From a virus (taxonomy: Duplodnaviria > Heunggongvirae > Uroviricota > Caudoviricetes), in IMG/VR virus record IMGVR_UViG_2574180227_000018: 6,635 nucleotides of DNA; one strand, written 5' to 3'. The notes below the pieces were generated by a model. It worked only from the letters and a program-made list of their open reading frames with translations, was not told the DNA's origin and ran no database searches. The translations under genes were made by a program, and so were the position numbers. Every line of letters begins with the position of its first letter. Positions within the stretch are counted from its first letter, which is position 1. This document shows positions 1 through 6,635 of this stretch, piece by piece.

Positions 1-1053
1 TTAAACTTCGTTTAACGCTTCCTGTATTCTTCGACCAATCCATTTCATGACCGGTACAGGCATTGAATTTCCAATGGCCTTATAACGATGAGCTGGAGAT
101 GAATTTTTCCATGGAATATCTGTATATCCATCGGGAAAACCTTGTAGCCTCTCGCATTCGGTTGGCGTCAACCTACGAACCCTTGAATATGGCGCTCTTT
201 CAACTATGAGCCCACCAGACATAGTCATGTCCTGGTTAGTTGTTCCGTTATAGCCAGCTATTACTGTGCCTGTTCGTTTTGGCAATGCTTCAAGGCAATA
301 TCGGTGCAATTTTCCTTCAATGCCTTGATCAAGAAGGGATTCGGATTTTTTCTTCTTTCCGTAATAGTTTTTATCGCCCTGCGACACAGGCGGGAACTCA
401 AATAATACCTTTCCGGGATCGAGCCTTTTTCCAGCACTTGCCACAACAAACACTCTTCTGCGAGCCTGGGCGACTCCGAAATATTGGGCATCAAGTACTC
501 GCCAGGCGACGATACGCGATGGTCCAGACACAACACCAGCGTTTGCCCATCTTTTCCTTGCTGGCTGTAATGCGCAACCTGCTCCGGCCAGCGCACCAAG
601 AAAATGACCGAATGCATTGTCATGGCTACTTAAAACTCCTGTGACGTTTTCCCATACGATTATTGAGGGGGATTTATTGAGCGATGCCCGAACGGTATCT
701 ATCTGATTCGCCAGTTCAACAAAAGACAGTGTTAACTGCCCCCGTGGATCTGAAAGGCCTTTTCGTTTGCCTGACATACTGAATGCCTGACACGGAGTTC
801 CACCTACAAGAATATCTGGTGCTTCAATAAGCCCATCCCTGATACGAGGCGCAAGCAAAGCCATATCACCAAGATTTGGTATATGGGGCCAGCGATATGA
901 AAGAAGTGTTGACGGGAAGTCCTCTATTTCACTGAACCATCTGGCTTTCCAGCCAAGATTGCTCCAGGCTACTGTCGCAGCTTCAATACCACTGCATACT
1001 GAACCATAGGTTAGTGACTTATCAGACTGAAAGTAATGTTTCTTGTTCCCCAC
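1..1053 (-). CDS. DNA (cytosine-5)-methyltransferase, phage-type, complete (GTG start at 1053, stop codon at 1-3)
   Basis: 350-aa ORF carrying C5-MTase motifs in canonical order: catalytic PCQ (GGTPCQAFS), ENV (VWENVTG), QxRxR (QARRRVFVV), and C-terminal RRLTPTECERLQGFPDGYT and AIGNSMPVPV. Gly-rich N-terminal motif I-like stretch (VCSGIEAA). SD-like AAGGAAA lies 7 nt upstream of the GTG. Short target-recognition region between motifs VIII and IX. Confidence 0.9.
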   Translation of the reverse strand: MGNKKHYFQSDKSLTYGSVCSGIEAATVAWSNLGWKARWFSEIEDFPSTLLSYRWPHIPNLGDMALLAPRIRDGLIEAPDILVGGTPCQAFSMSGKRKGLSDPRGQLTLSFVELANQIDTVRASLNKSPSIIVWENVTGVLSSHDNAFGHFLGALAGAGCALQPARKRWANAGVVSGPSRIVAWRVLDAQYFGVAQARRRVFVVASAGKRLDPGKVLFEFPPVSQGDKNYYGKKKKSESLLDQGIEGKLHRYCLEALPKRTGTVIAGYNGTTNQDMTMSGGLIVERAPYSRVRRLTPTECERLQGFPDGYTDIPWKNSSPAHRYKAIGNSMPVPVMKWIGRRIQEALNEV

Positions 1054-1207
1054 GGCAGGATTTCCTTGTGTATGTGGGGTGCTCTGTGGCGCTCTGAGAT
1101 GTGATTTGATTGAGGGTTTTGCAGCGCGGACATTTTACTTCCAGATAACTGAAACTGGCCCGTGCCAGTAGCTTATTGCAGTGTCGGCACCGTATGTTTC
1201 GATACAT
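1022..1207 (-). CDS. com: Com-like C4 zinc-finger protein (phage Mu Com family translational activator); overlaps the methyltransferase start by 32 nt
   Basis: Translation MYRNIRCRHCNKLLARASFSYLEVKCPRCKTLNQI...EHPTYTRKSC has two CxxC knuckles with Mu Com-like spacing and flanking residues (IRCxxCNKLL, CPRCK, EHPT), as I recall the Mu Com sequence. ATG at 1207 is preceded by AGGAGG with 10-nt spacing; the ORF track's longer form (to 1252) starts on a non-ATG codon with no SD. Its 3' end overlaps the downstream DNA-modification gene, as com does with mom. Confidence 0.7.
   Translation of the reverse strand: MYRNIRCRHCNKLLARASFSYLEVKCPRCKTLNQITSQSATEHPTYTRKSCRGEQETLLSV
1048..1079 (-). promoter_or_regulatory. 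mRNA hairpin sequestering the methyltransferase GTG start; SD lies in the loop
   Basis: Inverted repeat ccccac (1048-1053) and gtgggg (1074-1079). In the minus-strand mRNA the 6-bp GC-rich stem pairs CCCCAC with GUGGGG, which is the GTG start plus the next codon. The 20-nt loop contains the AAGGAAA SD. Confidence 0.35.
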
Positions 1208-1616
1208 GGCCGCATAACCTCCTGCTTTGTTGTTGATGCCTTTCTCATGCAATCGATCGACAAAAACGATCGATTCGGTTTGTTTAATTGATACAACAAA
1301 TAGATTGAAAAGTCATCAACAATGATTCAGGGCGGTGATTATTTACTTAAAGAAAACGAAGAGTTAGGTGGTGAAAACGATCATAAAATGATCATTTTAT
1401 TGACTTTTTATACAGTGAAGGTAGGATTGTGCGTATATGTAGTATGTTTCAAATCAATGGGATACTACATACATAAAGGGCGACCCAGATAGCGCGAACT
1501 ATTCTGGGCCGATTTAGACAATTTTGCATCAATGCTTTACTTCGAGCTCGTGGCGTATCCTATGATATTCCCCGGTCTCCTGTAAAGCAGAGATGCATAA
1601 AAAGGAGATCTTTATC
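1208..1616. promoter_or_regulatory. Divergent intergenic regulatory region containing four GATC (Dam) sites in two close pairs
   Basis: AT-rich 409-bp region between divergent com (minus) and the small + strand gene. GATC at 1255-1258 and 1268-1271 sit in repeated TCGATCGA and CGATCGAT contexts; GATC at 1379-1382 and 1390-1393 sit in the inverted repeat GATCATAAAATGATCA. TTGACT at 1400-1405 is a possible -35 for the + strand gene. Promoters not confidently placed. Confidence 0.3.
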
Positions 1617-2403: not shown

Positions 2404-2440
2404 TCCCGCCAGCCATATCATGACCGGCGGGATTTTTTTT
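2404..2440 (+). terminator. Intrinsic terminator-like hairpin, + strand orientation (7-bp GC stem, T8 tract)
   Basis: tcccgcc, a 15-nt loop, ggcggga, then tttttttt (2433-2440). On the minus strand the hairpin sits just after the esterase stop but has no following U-tract. Confidence 0.4.
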
Positions 2441-4478
2441 ATTCTGTTACCGCTTTTTTCACTTCCACCACAATGCTGTCAATCAGCACCGGGTAAGTTG
2501 CATTTTTGGTGATATCCGTTACGCGGAGTTTGTCCACCGGGAAAGTTCCTACTGGTGACTGCGTCAGGGTAAACGCGGCACCATCCTGACCATCAATAAC
2601 CGGAATAACCTGAAGGCTGTTATTTCCTGCAAAACGGAAGGCCAGCGTATGCCATTCATTATCAAATACACCAAAGGTTCCCAGTTTCTGGTTATTTGTT
2701 GCCACTTTTGCATTGTGGTGCATCACATTCAGGTCTTTTGCGTCTGTCTGGATGTAGAACGATGCCAGCAGATTATTCCCTGCATCCCCTGTCAGGGTGA
2801 CACCCTGCGGCAGAGAGGAAACCGGCCAGTAAAGCGCCATGACATACTGGTTTGCCACCAGGTCGCCAGGTACTTTAAAACGACAACTGATTAAACCACC
2901 ATTTTTCAGCAGTTCAGCACCAGTACCGGCATCATGATCCAGATACCAGGATGATTTACCTGTTTCCTTGGTCAGTTTCATTGCCTTACCACCTGTGCCT
3001 CCTGCATCACTGATAATTTCAGCTTTACCGCCAGCCGGCTCCCAGCCCTGGGCTTTCAGATTTCCTTCTGACTCACTGACACGGTAAGACAGCAGTGTTG
3101 TGGTTACTGCTTCAGTTTCTGAAGGTGACGGCACTGGTGCTTCAGTTTCAGAAGATGGAACATCGGCTTTTACTGTGGTTCGCCCTGCATGAGTCAGAAC
3201 AGCCGTGGCCAGACGGTCGGAAATAATCCCACGACGTGCCCATGAACTGAAATGGCTGGCCCGGCCCGCAGATGTCCAGGTGGCGGCACTGTTACGCCAC
3301 GTTGAGCCGTAATAACCAATGGATTCAATATCCGGGTCTTCTGTCGGATTGTTGGTGGGTACATTCGCGCCATTTTCATCTGTCATTAATGGGACGAAAT
3401 GAATGTTTTTATCTGTTTTATTTTTGTAGCCGTCATAGATTGCCTGGTATGCCTGTTCGTTTTTCTGTTTCCAGAAATACGTGGTATCGCCACAAATCCA
3501 CGGAACGCCAGCAGCACTGCCACCGGTACACTGTTCCGCCTGTTCAGCCAAGTCTGCGCGGAATTTTTCCACCATCGCCAGAAACAGCGCGGAATGCTCC
3601 GTCGGCTTCGCATCAATATCAAACTCGCCCTGCATCCACACCACAGCAAGCAGGCGGTTTTTCGGGTTCTTCGCCAGTGCCGCTTTTGTCCGGCTGATTA
3701 AGTCCTTATACAGCGGCTTATCCACACCCCAGCGGGCTGAGTCCTCTGAAGCACCCGTGCTGTCACTGTACGTGCCGTCAGCACCCGCCGTGAATGCAGA
3801 ACCACCACGGCAGCAGGGAACCAGCAGAATCCCCGCATCTGCCGGAATAAACGGCAGCAGTTTTTTGGCAATGTGAAGCCCCTGACCCACGGTGCCATAT
3901 TGCCCTTTAGCCACATCCGCTTTCGGGTGATTTTTTCCACTCATATCCTGCACATCATGCAGACAGTGGTCGGCCAGAATGATGTCGTTATACTGACAGG
4001 CTTTACCTCCCGGCGTGACTGTACTGCGACGGGCTAACTGCATAATACGCGGTTCGGGGTGGTCATATGTCTCCGGCAGCGGCAGACCTTCACCGTAGGC
4101 CATCCCGTTTGACTGACCAGCAAGAACCACCACGTAATACCAGGAAGGGGAGCTGGAAGCAGTTTCATTTCCTGACGGACGGGTATGTGTTTCAGCATTA
4201 TCCCAGTCTGACGGTTCAGCAGTACCGGCAACATCAGCACTTAACGGAATGACAGCACCAATACCCGCACCGGTAATTTCCACGCTCGGATCACCGGATA
4301 CTGGCCTTACCCACAGGCAATCCCGTGTATTAAAACTGATGAGACAGTCAGCAAATGTCATTCCTCCTTTTGTTTCGGCCGGAGGAAAGGGAGCCTCAAG
4401 AAATGCCGCTGTACCACCGGAAACTTTAACAGTAAAGTTTCCGGGCATTGATGATAGTTGAACCCATTTGGACGTCAT
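2439..4478 (-). CDS. SGNH/SASA-family carbohydrate esterase (sialate O-acetylesterase-like, prophage NanS-p-like architecture), 679 aa, three domains
   Basis: GQSN catalytic-serine motif in VVVLAGQSNGMAYGEG and a downstream WMQGEFD block, typical of sialate O-acetylesterase/SASA domains. About 110 aa of N-terminal domain, a Ser/Pro/Glu/Thr linker with tandem SETEA repeats, and about 250 aa of C-terminal Gly/Thr-rich, probably beta-rich domain. No signal peptide. ATG at 4478. Confidence 0.8.
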   Translation of the reverse strand: MTSKWVQLSSMPGNFTVKVSGGTAAFLEAPFPPAETKGGMTFADCLISFNTRDCLWVRPVSGDPSVEITGAGIGAVIPLSADVAGTAEPSDWDNAETHTRPSGNETASSSPSWYYVVVLAGQSNGMAYGEGLPLPETYDHPEPRIMQLARRSTVTPGGKACQYNDIILADHCLHDVQDMSGKNHPKADVAKGQYGTVGQGLHIAKKLLPFIPADAGILLVPCCRGGSAFTAGADGTYSDSTGASEDSARWGVDKPLYKDLISRTKAALAKNPKNRLLAVVWMQGEFDIDAKPTEHSALFLAMVEKFRADLAEQAEQCTGGSAAGVPWICGDTTYFWKQKNEQAYQAIYDGYKNKTDKNIHFVPLMTDENGANVPTNNPTEDPDIESIGYYGSTWRNSAATWTSAGRASHFSSWARRGIISDRLATAVLTHAGRTTVKADVPSSETEAPVPSPSETEAVTTTLLSYRVSESEGNLKAQGWEPAGGKAEIISDAGGTGGKAMKLTKETGKSSWYLDHDAGTGAELLKNGGLISCRFKVPGDLVANQYVMALYWPVSSLPQGVTLTGDAGNNLLASFYIQTDAKDLNVMHHNAKVATNNQKLGTFGVFDNEWHTLAFRFAGNNSLQVIPVIDGQDGAAFTLTQSPVGTFPVDKLRVTDITKNATYPVLIDSIVVEVKKAVTE

Positions 4479-4577: not shown

Positions 4578-5138
4578 TTATTTTTCCGAAACGCTCGCAG
4601 GATAATAACGATAAAGGGTTGAAAGGCCGATATCAAAAATAAGTGCCACCTGTCTTCGGCTGACACCCCCGGCCAGTAAACGCCCGACCTGCTCGTATTG
4701 TTCCTGCGTGAGACGACGGGGTCTGCCGCCGGTTCGTCCCCTTTCACGGGCAGCAGCAAGACCAGCCCGTGTCCGTTCGACAATCAATTCACGCTCCATT
4801 TCTGCCAGCGCACCCATTATGTGAAAAAAGAAGCGCCCCATGGGGGTTGACGTATCAATGTTGTCAGTAAGACTACGAAAATTTATCCCCTGTTGCTGTA
4901 ATTCATCTGTCAGCGCAACAAGGTGGCGCATACTGCGCCCCAGCCTGTCCAGTTTCCAGACCATCAGTGTGTCGCCGGGTTTTAGTTTCTTCAGTGCCCG
5001 CTTCAGTCCCGGCCGCTGCGTCGTTTTACCACTCATTTTGTCTTCAAAAATCTGCTCACATCCTGCACATTCCAGCGCATTTCTTTGTAAACCTGTGTTC
5101 TGGTCATTTGTTGATACGCGTATATAGCCAATCAGCAT
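4578..5138 (-). CDS. pin: Serine recombinase, DNA invertase of the Pin/Gin/Hin/Cin family, 186 aa
   Basis: N-terminus MLIGYIRVSTNDQNTGLQ carries the catalytic Ser motif. Resolvase-type catalytic domain (VWKLDRLGRS, MGALAEMERELI) and C-terminal HTH (GGVSRRQVALIFDIGLSTLYRY). SD AAGGAAGG 7 nt upstream of the ATG. Immediately adjacent to an inverted-repeat-bounded segment. Confidence 0.95.
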   Translation of the reverse strand: MLIGYIRVSTNDQNTGLQRNALECAGCEQIFEDKMSGKTTQRPGLKRALKKLKPGDTLMVWKLDRLGRSMRHLVALTDELQQQGINFRSLTDNIDTSTPMGRFFFHIMGALAEMERELIVERTRAGLAAARERGRTGGRPRRLTQEQYEQVGRLLAGGVSRRQVALIFDIGLSTLYRYYPASVSEK

Positions 5139-5192
5139 GTATTTACCTTCCTTAAAAAGAGGTGGAAATGCTTTTTAAAGCAGATATACGGC

Positions 5193-5218
5193 ATCCCTGA
5201 AACCTCGGTTTACGGGAA
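5193..5218. other. Left inversion crossover site (gix/pix-like: two 12-bp half-sites around central TC at 5205-5206)
   Basis: atccctgaaacc tc ggtttacgggaa is an imperfect palindrome resembling the gix/hix core (AAACC-TC-GGTTT). An identical 26-bp copy lies inverted at the right edge. Confidence 0.7.
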
Positions 5219-5226
5219 ACGGTAAA
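5201..5226. repeat. Inverted repeat, left arm (26 bp, perfect match to reverse complement of 6610-6635)
   Basis: aacctcggtttacgggaaacggtaaa compared by eye with the reverse complement of the last 26 bases of the window. Confidence 0.85.
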
Positions 5227-5587
5227 CAGGGCGGCGAATGCCCTGCCATCGAACGGAACGGCCGTTGCCGCGAACAGGCTGGCAAATGCCCACACAATTA
5301 ATGGTGTTCCCTTTGACGGAACGCAGGATATCAACATTACCTCCGGTATGACCGAAGCTGCTGCTGATAACAAATACGTTCGCAACGTTCAGCTTGGTGC
5401 CCAGAGTTACCATTCACCCGGAGGTAATGAAATGTCCTGGAGTTATGGCGCGCCTTCCGGTTGTATGCTTTCAGGTATTAACGTGCAGGAGACCGGGAGA
5501 AATTCAGCCGATAATATCGGAGGCGTTTATTACCGTCCGGTGCAGATATATATCGGTAATGCCTGGCGCACAGTTTCATCCGTCTGA
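5201..5587 (+). CDS. Silent alternative tail-fiber C-terminal cassette (Sv'-like); no start of its own in this orientation
   Basis: Open frame begins right after a TGA at 5198-5200 and runs through the recombination site to the stop at 5585-5587. The encoded NLGLRETVNRAANALPSNGTAVAANRLA...INGVPFDGTQDINITSGM... parallels the minus-strand fiber C-terminus (NLGLRETVNKAADALPSGGTAVAANRLA...INGVPFDGTRDINITSGM...), and the ends are similar (VYYRPVQIYIGNAW versus VYYRQIQYCINGNW). Confidence 0.7.
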   Translation, partial: NLGLRETVNRAANALPSNGTAVAANRLANAHTINGVPFDGTQDINITSGMTEAAADNKYVRNVQLGAQSYHSPGGNEMSWSYGAPSGCMLSGINVQETGRNSADNIGGVYYRPVQIYIGNAWRTVSSV

Positions 5588-5595
5588 TTAAAGGA

Positions 5596-5618
5596 AAAGG
5601 GTGCGATAAGCACCCTTT
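5596..5618. terminator. Bidirectional terminator hairpin between the convergent Sv' cassette and tfa (9-bp stem, 5-nt loop)
   Basis: aaagggtgc gataa gcacccttt. On the minus strand it directly follows the tfa stop and is followed by a UUUUCCUUU tract. Confidence 0.6.
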
Positions 5619-5621
5619 ACG

Positions 5622-6164
5622 TTATTCAGGCTTCTCCGGCCATTTAATGTCGTCAAATTCAGCTTTGTTTTTAATCGCTGGTAGTTCCATTTTTTTCACC
5701 TGACTGATGTATGCCATCCATCGGGTAAGTGCGGCTCTGTCTTCATCACTGATGGTGCCCAGCTGTAATTCTGTTCTCCAGTCATTAATTTTTTCATATG
5801 CCTGATTAAGATATGACTGGCGCATTGCTTCCAGTTTTCTTGCGTAGTTAACCGGAATACGGGAGATCACGCCATTATCAAACTTCCAGTTACCCGAAAT
5901 ATCAGCACCTTCAGGGAGTTCGTCGACTTCAACCACAGAGAACCCCGCAGGATACAGCGCCGAAGCGTCCTGTGATATTGAGCAGATAATGCCGCTGTCA
6001 GGTGTTATACAAAGTTTATATTTTTTTGTGAATAATGGCAGGGACTCGTAGAAATCCTTACCATCTTCACTCTGAAAATACTGTACATCATTACCATAGA
6101 GGGTATTTTCCGGGTAATATCGTTTAACATTAATCAGTTGCATAAACATCACCATGTGAATCAA
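5622..6164 (-). CDS. tfa: Tail fiber assembly protein (Tfa chaperone; P2 G / Mu U / lambda Tfa family); probable start at ATG 6143
   Basis: C-terminal region LGTISDEDRAALTRWMAYISQV...DIKWPEKPE resembles the conserved Tfa C-terminus (lambda Tfa ends ...PDIEWPAVP), with SEDGKDFYE and ADISGNWKFDNGVI blocks upstream. The ORF-track start at 6164 is a TTG without SD; ATG 6143 has a GGTGA SD. Confidence 0.85.
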   Translation of the reverse strand: MIHMVMFMQLINVKRYYPENTLYGNDVQYFQSEDGKDFYESLPLFTKKYKLCITPDSGIICSISQDASALYPAGFSVVEVDELPEGADISGNWKFDNGVISRIPVNYARKLEAMRQSYLNQAYEKINDWRTELQLGTISDEDRAALTRWMAYISQVKKMELPAIKNKAEFDDIKWPEKPE

Positions 6165-6263
6165 TGATAAAAACAGGAATAATACTATCGCTATATACGG
6201 ACAGGGGTTGTCTGAGATAACGCATATATCAGGCGCTGCCTGCCGTACGCCATGAGCCGTTAA

Positions 6264-6635
6264 TTAAATACTTGCAGCGGATACCCAATTCCCATTAATA
6301 CAATATTGTATCTGTCTGTAATAAACACGGTCATCACCACCACGCATTTCCCAGTCTCCGTCAGTCTTAAAACCGGTAATCACATTTCCTGATGACAGGG
6401 AGTAATTATATTCCAGTACGCCGCTTAATGCCTGCGCTCCCAGTCTTACCCCTGTAACATAACGCTGATTGGCCGTTGATTCCGGCATTCCTGACGTAAT
6501 GTTTATATCCCGCGTCCCGTCGAAAGGAACACCATTAATATTTCTTGGGGTGGCGAGTCTGTTTGCTGCCACGGCGGTTCCCCCCGATGGCAGGGCATCA
6601 GCGGCCTTATTTACCGTTTCCCGTAAACCGAGGTT
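6264..6635 (-). CDS. Tail fiber protein, C-terminal variable part (Sv-like), 5'-truncated by the window edge; currently expressed orientation
   Basis: The reading frame is open from the last base of the window through the inverted repeat to the stop at 6264-6266. The ORF-track GTG at 6572 is internal. Homologous to the + strand cassette. Confidence 0.8.
   Translation of the reverse strand, partial: NLGLRETVNKAADALPSGGTAVAANRLATPRNINGVPFDGTRDINITSGMPESTANQRYVTGVRLGAQALSGVLEYNYSLSSGNVITGFKTDGDWEMRGGDDRVYYRQIQYCINGNWVSAASI
6610..6635. repeat. Inverted repeat, right arm (26 bp), part of the right inversion site, which continues past the window edge
   Basis: Reverse complement equals 5201-5226. 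The predicted crossover dinucleotide is at 6630-6631, so the outer half-site lies beyond the window. Confidence 0.85.

Follow-up and report, generated by a model that had tools for sequence, protein, structure and literature searches.

The DNA analysed here, a stretch of 6,635 nucleotides from the IMG/VR virus record IMGVR_UViG_2574180227_000018 (hereafter the window), was recognised from its list of open reading frames (ORFs) and from Pfam as the right end of a Mu-like prophage. A copy with 100% identity is present in Escherichia coli SW070917, within a complete Mu-like prophage of 40 kb that carries transposase, Mor/C-type activator, lysis, head, tail and baseplate genes (the Mor/C-family activator of this phage is WP_000852377), and O157:H7 genomes hold the same segment at about 82% identity. 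The window contains a Gin-type invertible segment of about 1.43 kb with two alternative C-terminal cassettes of a tail fibre, A and B, and a single gene for a tail-fibre assembly chaperone (tfa) between them. Sp18, a Mu-like prophage of E. coli O157:H7 Sakai, belongs to the same prophage family, and the locus is already known as its invertible host-specificity region. The segment is filled from end to end (387 + 34 + 522 + 120 + 372 nt for cassette A, the hairpin interval, tfa, the spacer upstream of tfa and cassette B), which leaves no space for a second tfa. We read 15 such loci of 73-100% identity. The window is one of them, complete E. coli genomes supplied another 13, and the last belongs to a Mu-like phage that is inserted within Stx phages. 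The layout was the same in all 15: cassette, hairpin, one antisense tfa, spacer and cassette, with the recombinase outside. The single-tfa layout is therefore the family architecture of Sp18-like Mu-like prophages of E. coli.

The protein encoded next to the segment has the domains expected of a serine invertase (Resolvase, PF00239, E = 1e-51; HTH_7, PF02796, 2e-14) and, over 181 aa, shares 76% identity with Mu Gin. In Mu, a recombinational enhancer bound by Fis acts in cis from within the 5' part of the recombinase gene; over its first 250 nt, the invertase gene is about 80% identical to that part of Mu gin. The left crossover site aligns nearly base for base with Mu gixR. The right site has its core at 6630-6631, where the window stops four bases into the outer half of the site, and it is complete in L001-L013 and L018. 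Two pairs of inverted-repeat arms, 5201-5283 / 6553-6635 and 5297-5356 / 6480-6539, are each 83% complementary, and the first 155 nt or so of cassettes A and B correspond to the left and right arm, respectively.

Inversion of this segment occurs in nature. In H3 and H4, which are 100% identical to the window, the segment is flipped, and L003 and L004 are one prophage, with identical protein accessions, in two orientations. A C/G polymorphism just outside the TC core, at the equivalent of position 5204, keeps to its flank in L003 and L004, indicating that strand exchange takes place at the TC core. In a census of complete genomes, cassette A adjoined the recombinase (the window state) in 28 cases and cassette B adjoined it (the flipped state) in 43, so that the flipped state is at least as common and the switch is active in lysogens. 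Among the 15 loci, six had the orientation of the window, eight were flipped and one (L010) was locked in the flipped state. The constant part of the fibre gene lies beyond the right end of the window. In L003 and L007, which are syntenic and in the window orientation, the annotated fibre gene ends in cassette B. In the flipped loci the fibre gene is joined in frame to the tfa-less cassette, which is cassette A in L001 and L004, and tfa is antisense to it. The locked variant was found in three genomes (L010, positions 3001-4300 of NZ_AP022815, and also H29 and H30). In L010 the recombinase and the tfa-proximal cassette are deleted and the fibre is permanently fused to A; the antisense tfa is still intact and is divergent from the DUF6645 gene.

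The original prediction held that the segment has one tfa only, co-oriented with the cassette currently expressed, and both points were borne out. The tfa gene is the sole ORF of the window with a Caudo_TAP domain (PF02413, E = 3e-19; 69.8 bits against a cut-off of 22.1), and tfa and cassette B are both on the minus strand. No second tfa, nor any remnant of one, was detected in the window or in the 42-kb prophage L014 by tblastn with eight Tfa proteins (those of the window, L005 and L012, Mu U and U', SfMu gp50 and gp51, and P2 G), the sole matches being 5625-6143 and one prophage locus; the larger ORFs of the window were also screened with Pfam. The comparison with homologous segments gave the same answer, with one tfa in 15 of 15 loci. 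Over residues 17-154, the Tfa protein matches the Mu U chain of a solved complex (5YVQ_B, E = 2e-17). Its identity to U and G is only 32-35%, and its gene has evolved with a dN/dS of 0.11-0.27. The ORF extends from 5622 to 6164 if its TTG start is used, and RefSeq places the start at the equivalent of ATG 6143 in all homologues. N-terminally extended versions of 190 or 210 aa proposed by some gene callers are probably artefacts, produced when the U-rich leader is read in frame: the commoner spacer allele (L005-L011) has an in-frame ATG 18 codons upstream, which would add the hydrophobic extension MAIVLFLFLSLIYMVMF, and the window allele has ATA there.

The two tips are related to each other and to well-known fibres. 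Over its C-terminal 73 aa, tip A has 57% identity to P2 H and to SfMu gp52, and it also matches Mu S (5YVQ_A) at 1.6e-6, while tip B is 56% identical to the C-terminus of Mu S. Tips A and B share 50% identity overall and the terminal motif YYR-x-x-Q-x-x-I-x-x-x-W. These similarities place both in the Mu S / P2 H tip family. Both are also under purifying selection. Cassette A alleles gave dN/dS values of 0.06-0.18 at dS from 0.6 to saturation, and the frame was intact in all 15 loci examined; a further type, C, found in the same tfa-less slot, gave 0.09, and cassette B 0.07-0.35. The combination of low dN/dS, high dS and intact frames indicates that the tfa-less cassette is a functional coding sequence and speaks strongly against a dead flipped form.

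Table 1. Features of the window.
Feature	Coordinates	Strand	Description
C5 cytosine methyltransferase	1-1053	-	preceded by com
com	1022-1252	-	upstream of the C5 methyltransferase; frames overlap
Two small DUF genes	between com and 2439	-	
SASA carbohydrate-esterase / DUF6645 protein	2439-4478	-	679 aa
Gin-type serine DNA invertase	4578-5138	-	186 aa; outside the segment, adjoining it
Left gix-like site	5193-5218		ATCCCTGAAACC-TC-GGTTTACGGGAA; core dinucleotide 5205-5206
Cassette A	5201-5587	+	128 codons + stop; alternative fibre C-terminus; no chaperone gene behind it
Hairpin	5591-5623	both	core stem 5596-5604 / 5610-5618; between convergent cassette A and tfa
tfa, tail-fibre assembly chaperone	5622-6143	-	173 aa; Mu U-like; start ATG 6143 (MQLINV...)
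Proximal spacer (leader)	6144-6221	-	78 nt; invariant blocks; TATTAT 35 nt before the ATG
Distal spacer	6222-6263	-	42 nt; fossil remnant, the 3' end, of a type-E cassette that was displaced
Cassette B	6264-6635	-	123 codons + stop; frame open to the window end; currently expressed position

We propose, with a probability of roughly 0.55, that one promiscuous Tfa serves both fibre forms and that tfa is an autonomous cistron transcribed in both orientations of the segment. The Gin orthologue inverts the DNA between the two gix sites, and the constant part of a short tail-fibre gene is thereby given tip B in the window state and tip A in the flipped state; the single Tfa, of the Mu U type, would serve both tips. 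In this scheme tfa would be free-standing, with a spacer of 51-121 nt upstream in place of tight coupling and a terminator-like hairpin behind. In the window state, read-through from the fibre gene can supply its transcript. After a flip, its transcription would have to begin either at a site in the spacer or upstream of it that is carried along by the inversion, or on the recombinase side, reading in. We thus infer both an action of Tfa on tip A and an expression of tfa when it is antisense to the fibre gene.

One Tfa could serve both tips because the tips are homologous and because this lineage of Tfa tolerates different tips. The natural chaperone of a B-like tip, Mu U, and those of A-like tips, P2 G and SfMu gp51, are 85-91% identical to one another, indicating that one type of chaperone already works with both tip subtypes. 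In the Sp18-like family the pairings are shuffled: Tfa N-domains that are 86-100% identical adjoin tips B, D or E, although D and E have only 38-49% identity to B in their variable parts, and Tfa alleles of only 64% identity are found with one and the same tip B. In Mu, it is the N-domain of Tfa (U) that binds the fibre tip, and it remains in the virion (PMC9608196). Sharing of the chaperone is thus biochemically plausible.

The hairpin is compatible with such an independent unit. Its fold has a predicted free energy of -24.7 kcal/mol on the plus strand (z -4.05) and of -19.1 kcal/mol on the minus strand (z -2.3), and on the latter, the tfa strand, it is followed by the U-run UUUUCCUUU. Hairpins of other sequence are found at the same position in L005, L012 and L018. 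The structure looks terminator-like on both strands, which fits two convergent transcription units.

The spacer upstream of tfa was the second point of interest. A gap of about 100 bp (6165-6263) had been predicted; this figure holds for the TTG start, and with the likely ATG at 6143 the gap becomes 120 nt (6144-6263). Spacers of single-tfa segments measured 120/121, 86, 79 and 51 nt, long in every one seen, and the 86-, 79- and 51-nt spacers were unrelated. At 18 other fibre-tfa junctions, taken from two-tfa invertons and from non-inverting phages and including the closest non-inverting homologues of this tfa (54-61% identity), the gap was 17 nt or less. A long spacer therefore goes with the single-tfa design.

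The two parts of the spacer have different histories. With one mismatch in about 40 nt, the distal part has the DNA sequence of a fibre end (...YLINGSWRTAGST, then stop) read in another frame of L006. As this is a type-E fibre end, the match indicates that cassette B replaced an E-type cassette, of which the last 13 codons were left behind. The proximal part is about 90% conserved across alleles even though the flanking cassette or tfa can differ by 25-55%, and it is kept beside a tfa of only 57-75% identity or a cassette of only 48% identity. Of 5426 E. coli genomes, 60 contain it, without exception immediately before tfa. Its invariant blocks are ATATGCGTTAT-Y-TCAGA and GCGATAGTATTATTCCTGTTTTTATCATTGATT, and its conservation could reflect a function. 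We also considered whether the proximal spacer might itself be an older fossil cassette end. One frame, KYALFQTSIACIWR followed by a stop, mimics the tip motif; the similarity of the DNA to eight cassette ends was not significant, and we keep this as a lead only.

A separate observation concerns cassette B. Together with the spacer it is near-identical across L002-L011 (94-98% at the amino acid level, dS 0.08-0.2), despite divergent cassettes A (dS above 1) and tfa genes (64-100% aa identity). This suggests that cassette B spread recently and horizontally, by recombination.

We then looked for signals from which tfa could be expressed. Three unrelated spacers each have a -10-like hexamer with five of six matches (TATTAT, AATAAT and TATGAT) 31-35 nt before the tfa ATG, and such a shared window arose in only 39 of 5000 shuffles. 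In the C-dependent late promoters of Mu, an imperfect dyad of 16 bp is centred at -43.5, upstream of the -10 hexamer (PMC2582627). In the window allele, the motif GTTAT-CTCAGA-CAAC-CCC precedes TATTAT by about 22 nt, a placement close to that of the Mu C box with respect to its -10 (PMC2582627). Within the spacer, no stable RNA fold was predicted (z +1.1) and no Rfam family matched at an E of 1 or less. On the plus strand of 5100-5200, no promoter reading in from the recombinase side was found.

Several results weigh against a shared chaperone with its own transcription unit. The -10 spacing test was devised after the data were seen and is a lead, not a proof, and the right half of the C-box-like motif (TTAT-N6-CAAC-CCC) is not conserved in other alleles. 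The spacers of the window, L005, L012 and L018 yielded no pair of sigma-70 hexamers 16-18 nt apart with 9 of 12 matches on the strand of tfa, and no spacer type has a recognisable -35 element. When the spacer was aligned locally with regions upstream of lys, I, P, com and other genes of this phage, and with four Mu late promoters, z stayed below 1.7 throughout. The divergence of the spacer is about neutral relative to that of cassette B, and mosaic recombination could equally explain the conservation of the proximal part. Part of the spacer is demonstrably a recombination scar, and long spacers may be a historical accident rather than functional. Finally, the census alone does not establish that both types of virion are infectious. 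An internal tfa promoter, which the original prediction had offered for the flipped form, is nevertheless the most economical way of making the switch work, even though the particular site proposed did not hold up (see below) and no consensus promoter was recognised.

The alternative that survives best is that the tips of the tfa-less slot (A and C) fold and trimerise without this Tfa, either intrinsically or with a Tfa supplied by other prophages, so that tfa would serve only its neighbour and the spacer would be a functionless scar. The antisense position of tfa in the flipped state, the lack of a recognisable promoter and the scar in the spacer would all be accommodated, and Tfa-family chaperones can function across unrelated phages. 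Slot occupancy is likewise strict in the 15 loci: the slot without tfa holds A or C in every case, and the neighbour of tfa is invariably B, D or E. This last pattern is, however, explained equally well by descent and homologous replacement. A transposable phage, which passes from host to host, could also hardly count on a supply of Tfa by other prophages, and P2 G and Mu U are essential tail-fibre genes. The relatives of tip A in P2, SfMu, POP15 (Certrevirus), Rac-SA53 and 19-1-2 (Avunavirus) are each followed within 17 nt by a co-oriented Caudo_TAP gene. Its presence in five phage lineages indicates that this class of tip is normally paired with a Tfa, contrary to what is expected of a chaperone-free tip. 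We therefore consider this alternative unlikely as a whole. Its stricter form, in which the P2-H-like tips of types A and C would be independent of any Tfa, a natural self-trimerising tip of the Mu S / P2 H class with tfa there for the neighbour only, appears more doubtful still. The chaperone-free flipped form that the original prediction had listed among its options is thus possible but disfavoured.

A second alternative is that the flipped state is an OFF state or one of low infectivity, in which fibres ending in tip A would mostly misfold for want of a chaperone, so that the switch would modulate infectivity and not host range. It would account for a tfa that lies on the opposite strand after inversion, behind a hairpin that would block read-through, and for the lack of a detected promoter. 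Purifying selection on a cassette at synonymous saturation, with frames intact at every locus, is unexpected for a useless product, however, and three genomes carry the version locked in the flipped state. We regard this alternative as improbable. The same evidence (dN/dS of 0.06-0.18, 15 of 15 frames intact, and a flipped state at least as common as the other) speaks against the prediction that the flipped form might be non-functional. That tfa is driven by the sigma-70-like site proposed earlier is highly improbable: the hexamers TTATCT (6215-6220) and TATATA (6192-6197) and their 17-nt spacing are present as described, but they reach only 7 of 12 matches, a quality found at 2.3 sites per 100 nt per strand in the window, no better than chance, and equalled or exceeded at four other sites on the same strand of the gap. 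The sixth base of TATATA is not the T that is invariant in the -10 element; the hexamer becomes TATATG in the other spacer allele and, with the rest of the site, is missing from the 51-nt and 79-nt spacers.

Some observations on the neighbouring genes may be added. The SASA/DUF6645 gene lies between the Gin-like recombinase and com and is conserved in all Sp18-like loci read; Mu has no gene there. Its product may be an accessory receptor-modifying or tail-associated enzyme. Behind com, the window has a C5 cytosine DNA methyltransferase in place of mom, whereas the sister prophage of STEC2018-607 (L002, 1950-2841) has com and mom. The presence of one or the other at the same place indicates that the modification module was exchanged behind the same translational activator, com. 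Just upstream of the recombinase, RefSeq annotates a hypothetical protein of 61 aa (L001, 8299-8484; window 5152-5385, minus strand). This ORF is antisense to the adjoining cassette, overlaps the inverted repeat and differs with orientation; it is probably spurious. In L014, a 'tRNA-OTHER' is annotated at 23153-23237 amid the head-morphogenesis genes of the same prophage.

If one Tfa does serve two or more tips and is expressed either way, the Sp18-like segment would be a naturally occurring host-range switch of minimal design and a test bed for the specificity of Tfa chaperones, with a bearing on the engineering of phage and tailocin host range by tip swaps. As a natural case it is suited to the study of promiscuous Tfa chaperones and of expression that does not depend on orientation, but it does not embody a new principle. 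The replacement of tip cassettes can also be followed in this family: displaced cassettes leave fossil ends, and one cassette, B, has spread across prophages that differ elsewhere. The locus is common in pathogenic E. coli (Sp18 of O157 and other Shiga toxin-producing strains, STEC). We found none of four features of the Sp18-like segment (its single chaperone, spacer, fossil cassette end and tip types) described in the literature searched. One inversion confirmed by long reads, in CP066032 (PMC9881135), proved to concern a classical two-tfa Mu segment and not the Sp18-like single-tfa family.

A search of genome contigs with a single protein returned no relatives, and one with an alignment returned only non-inverting relatives. 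Among E. coli sequences, L030-L032 represent a non-inverting Mu-like relative with a fibre of 331 aa, a gap of 14 nt and a tfa 57% identical to that of the window. Downstream of these, a further fibre, which resembles lambda Stf, is accompanied by a DUF4376 protein and precedes com and mom; there is no recombinase. This would be a different way to carry two receptor-binding proteins.

The closest known system is the G segment of Mu with its invertase Gin (S-U / U'-S'), a design that recurs in SfMu and D108. The Sp18-like segment shares with it a Gin orthologue, near-identical gix sites, a location between the baseplate genes and com, alternative C-terminal cassettes on a constant N-terminal part, a convergent layout and a U-like Tfa. 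It differs in its size (about 1.43 kb, against about 3 kb in Mu), in its single tfa where Mu has two, in its cassettes of only 118-128 codons with a fibre of about 300 aa (504 aa in Mu), and in the cassette-tfa gap, 51-121 nt against 2 nt. With the C segment of P1 (Cin) and the P segment of e14 (Pin) it has in common the serine invertase family, pinE having appeared as a cross-match in the genome census, and the logic of alternative fibre ends; in P1 and e14, tfa follows each fibre end at 6 nt or less or overlaps it, whereas here there is one tfa and a gap of 120 nt. The original prediction was thus right in stating that Mu, P1 and e14 carry a chaperone for each alternative fibre end, as their sequences confirm. 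One tfa per cassette, placed 0-6 nt behind the fibre end or overlapping it, is a feature of Mu, SfMu, P1 and e14 that the Sp18-like segment does not have. Tips A and B and Tfa are homologous to the partners of the S-U complex of Mu (PDB 5YVQ) and of the H-G pair of P2. By its recombinase, crossover sites, genomic position and logic, the Sp18-like segment belongs to the Gin/G-segment class.

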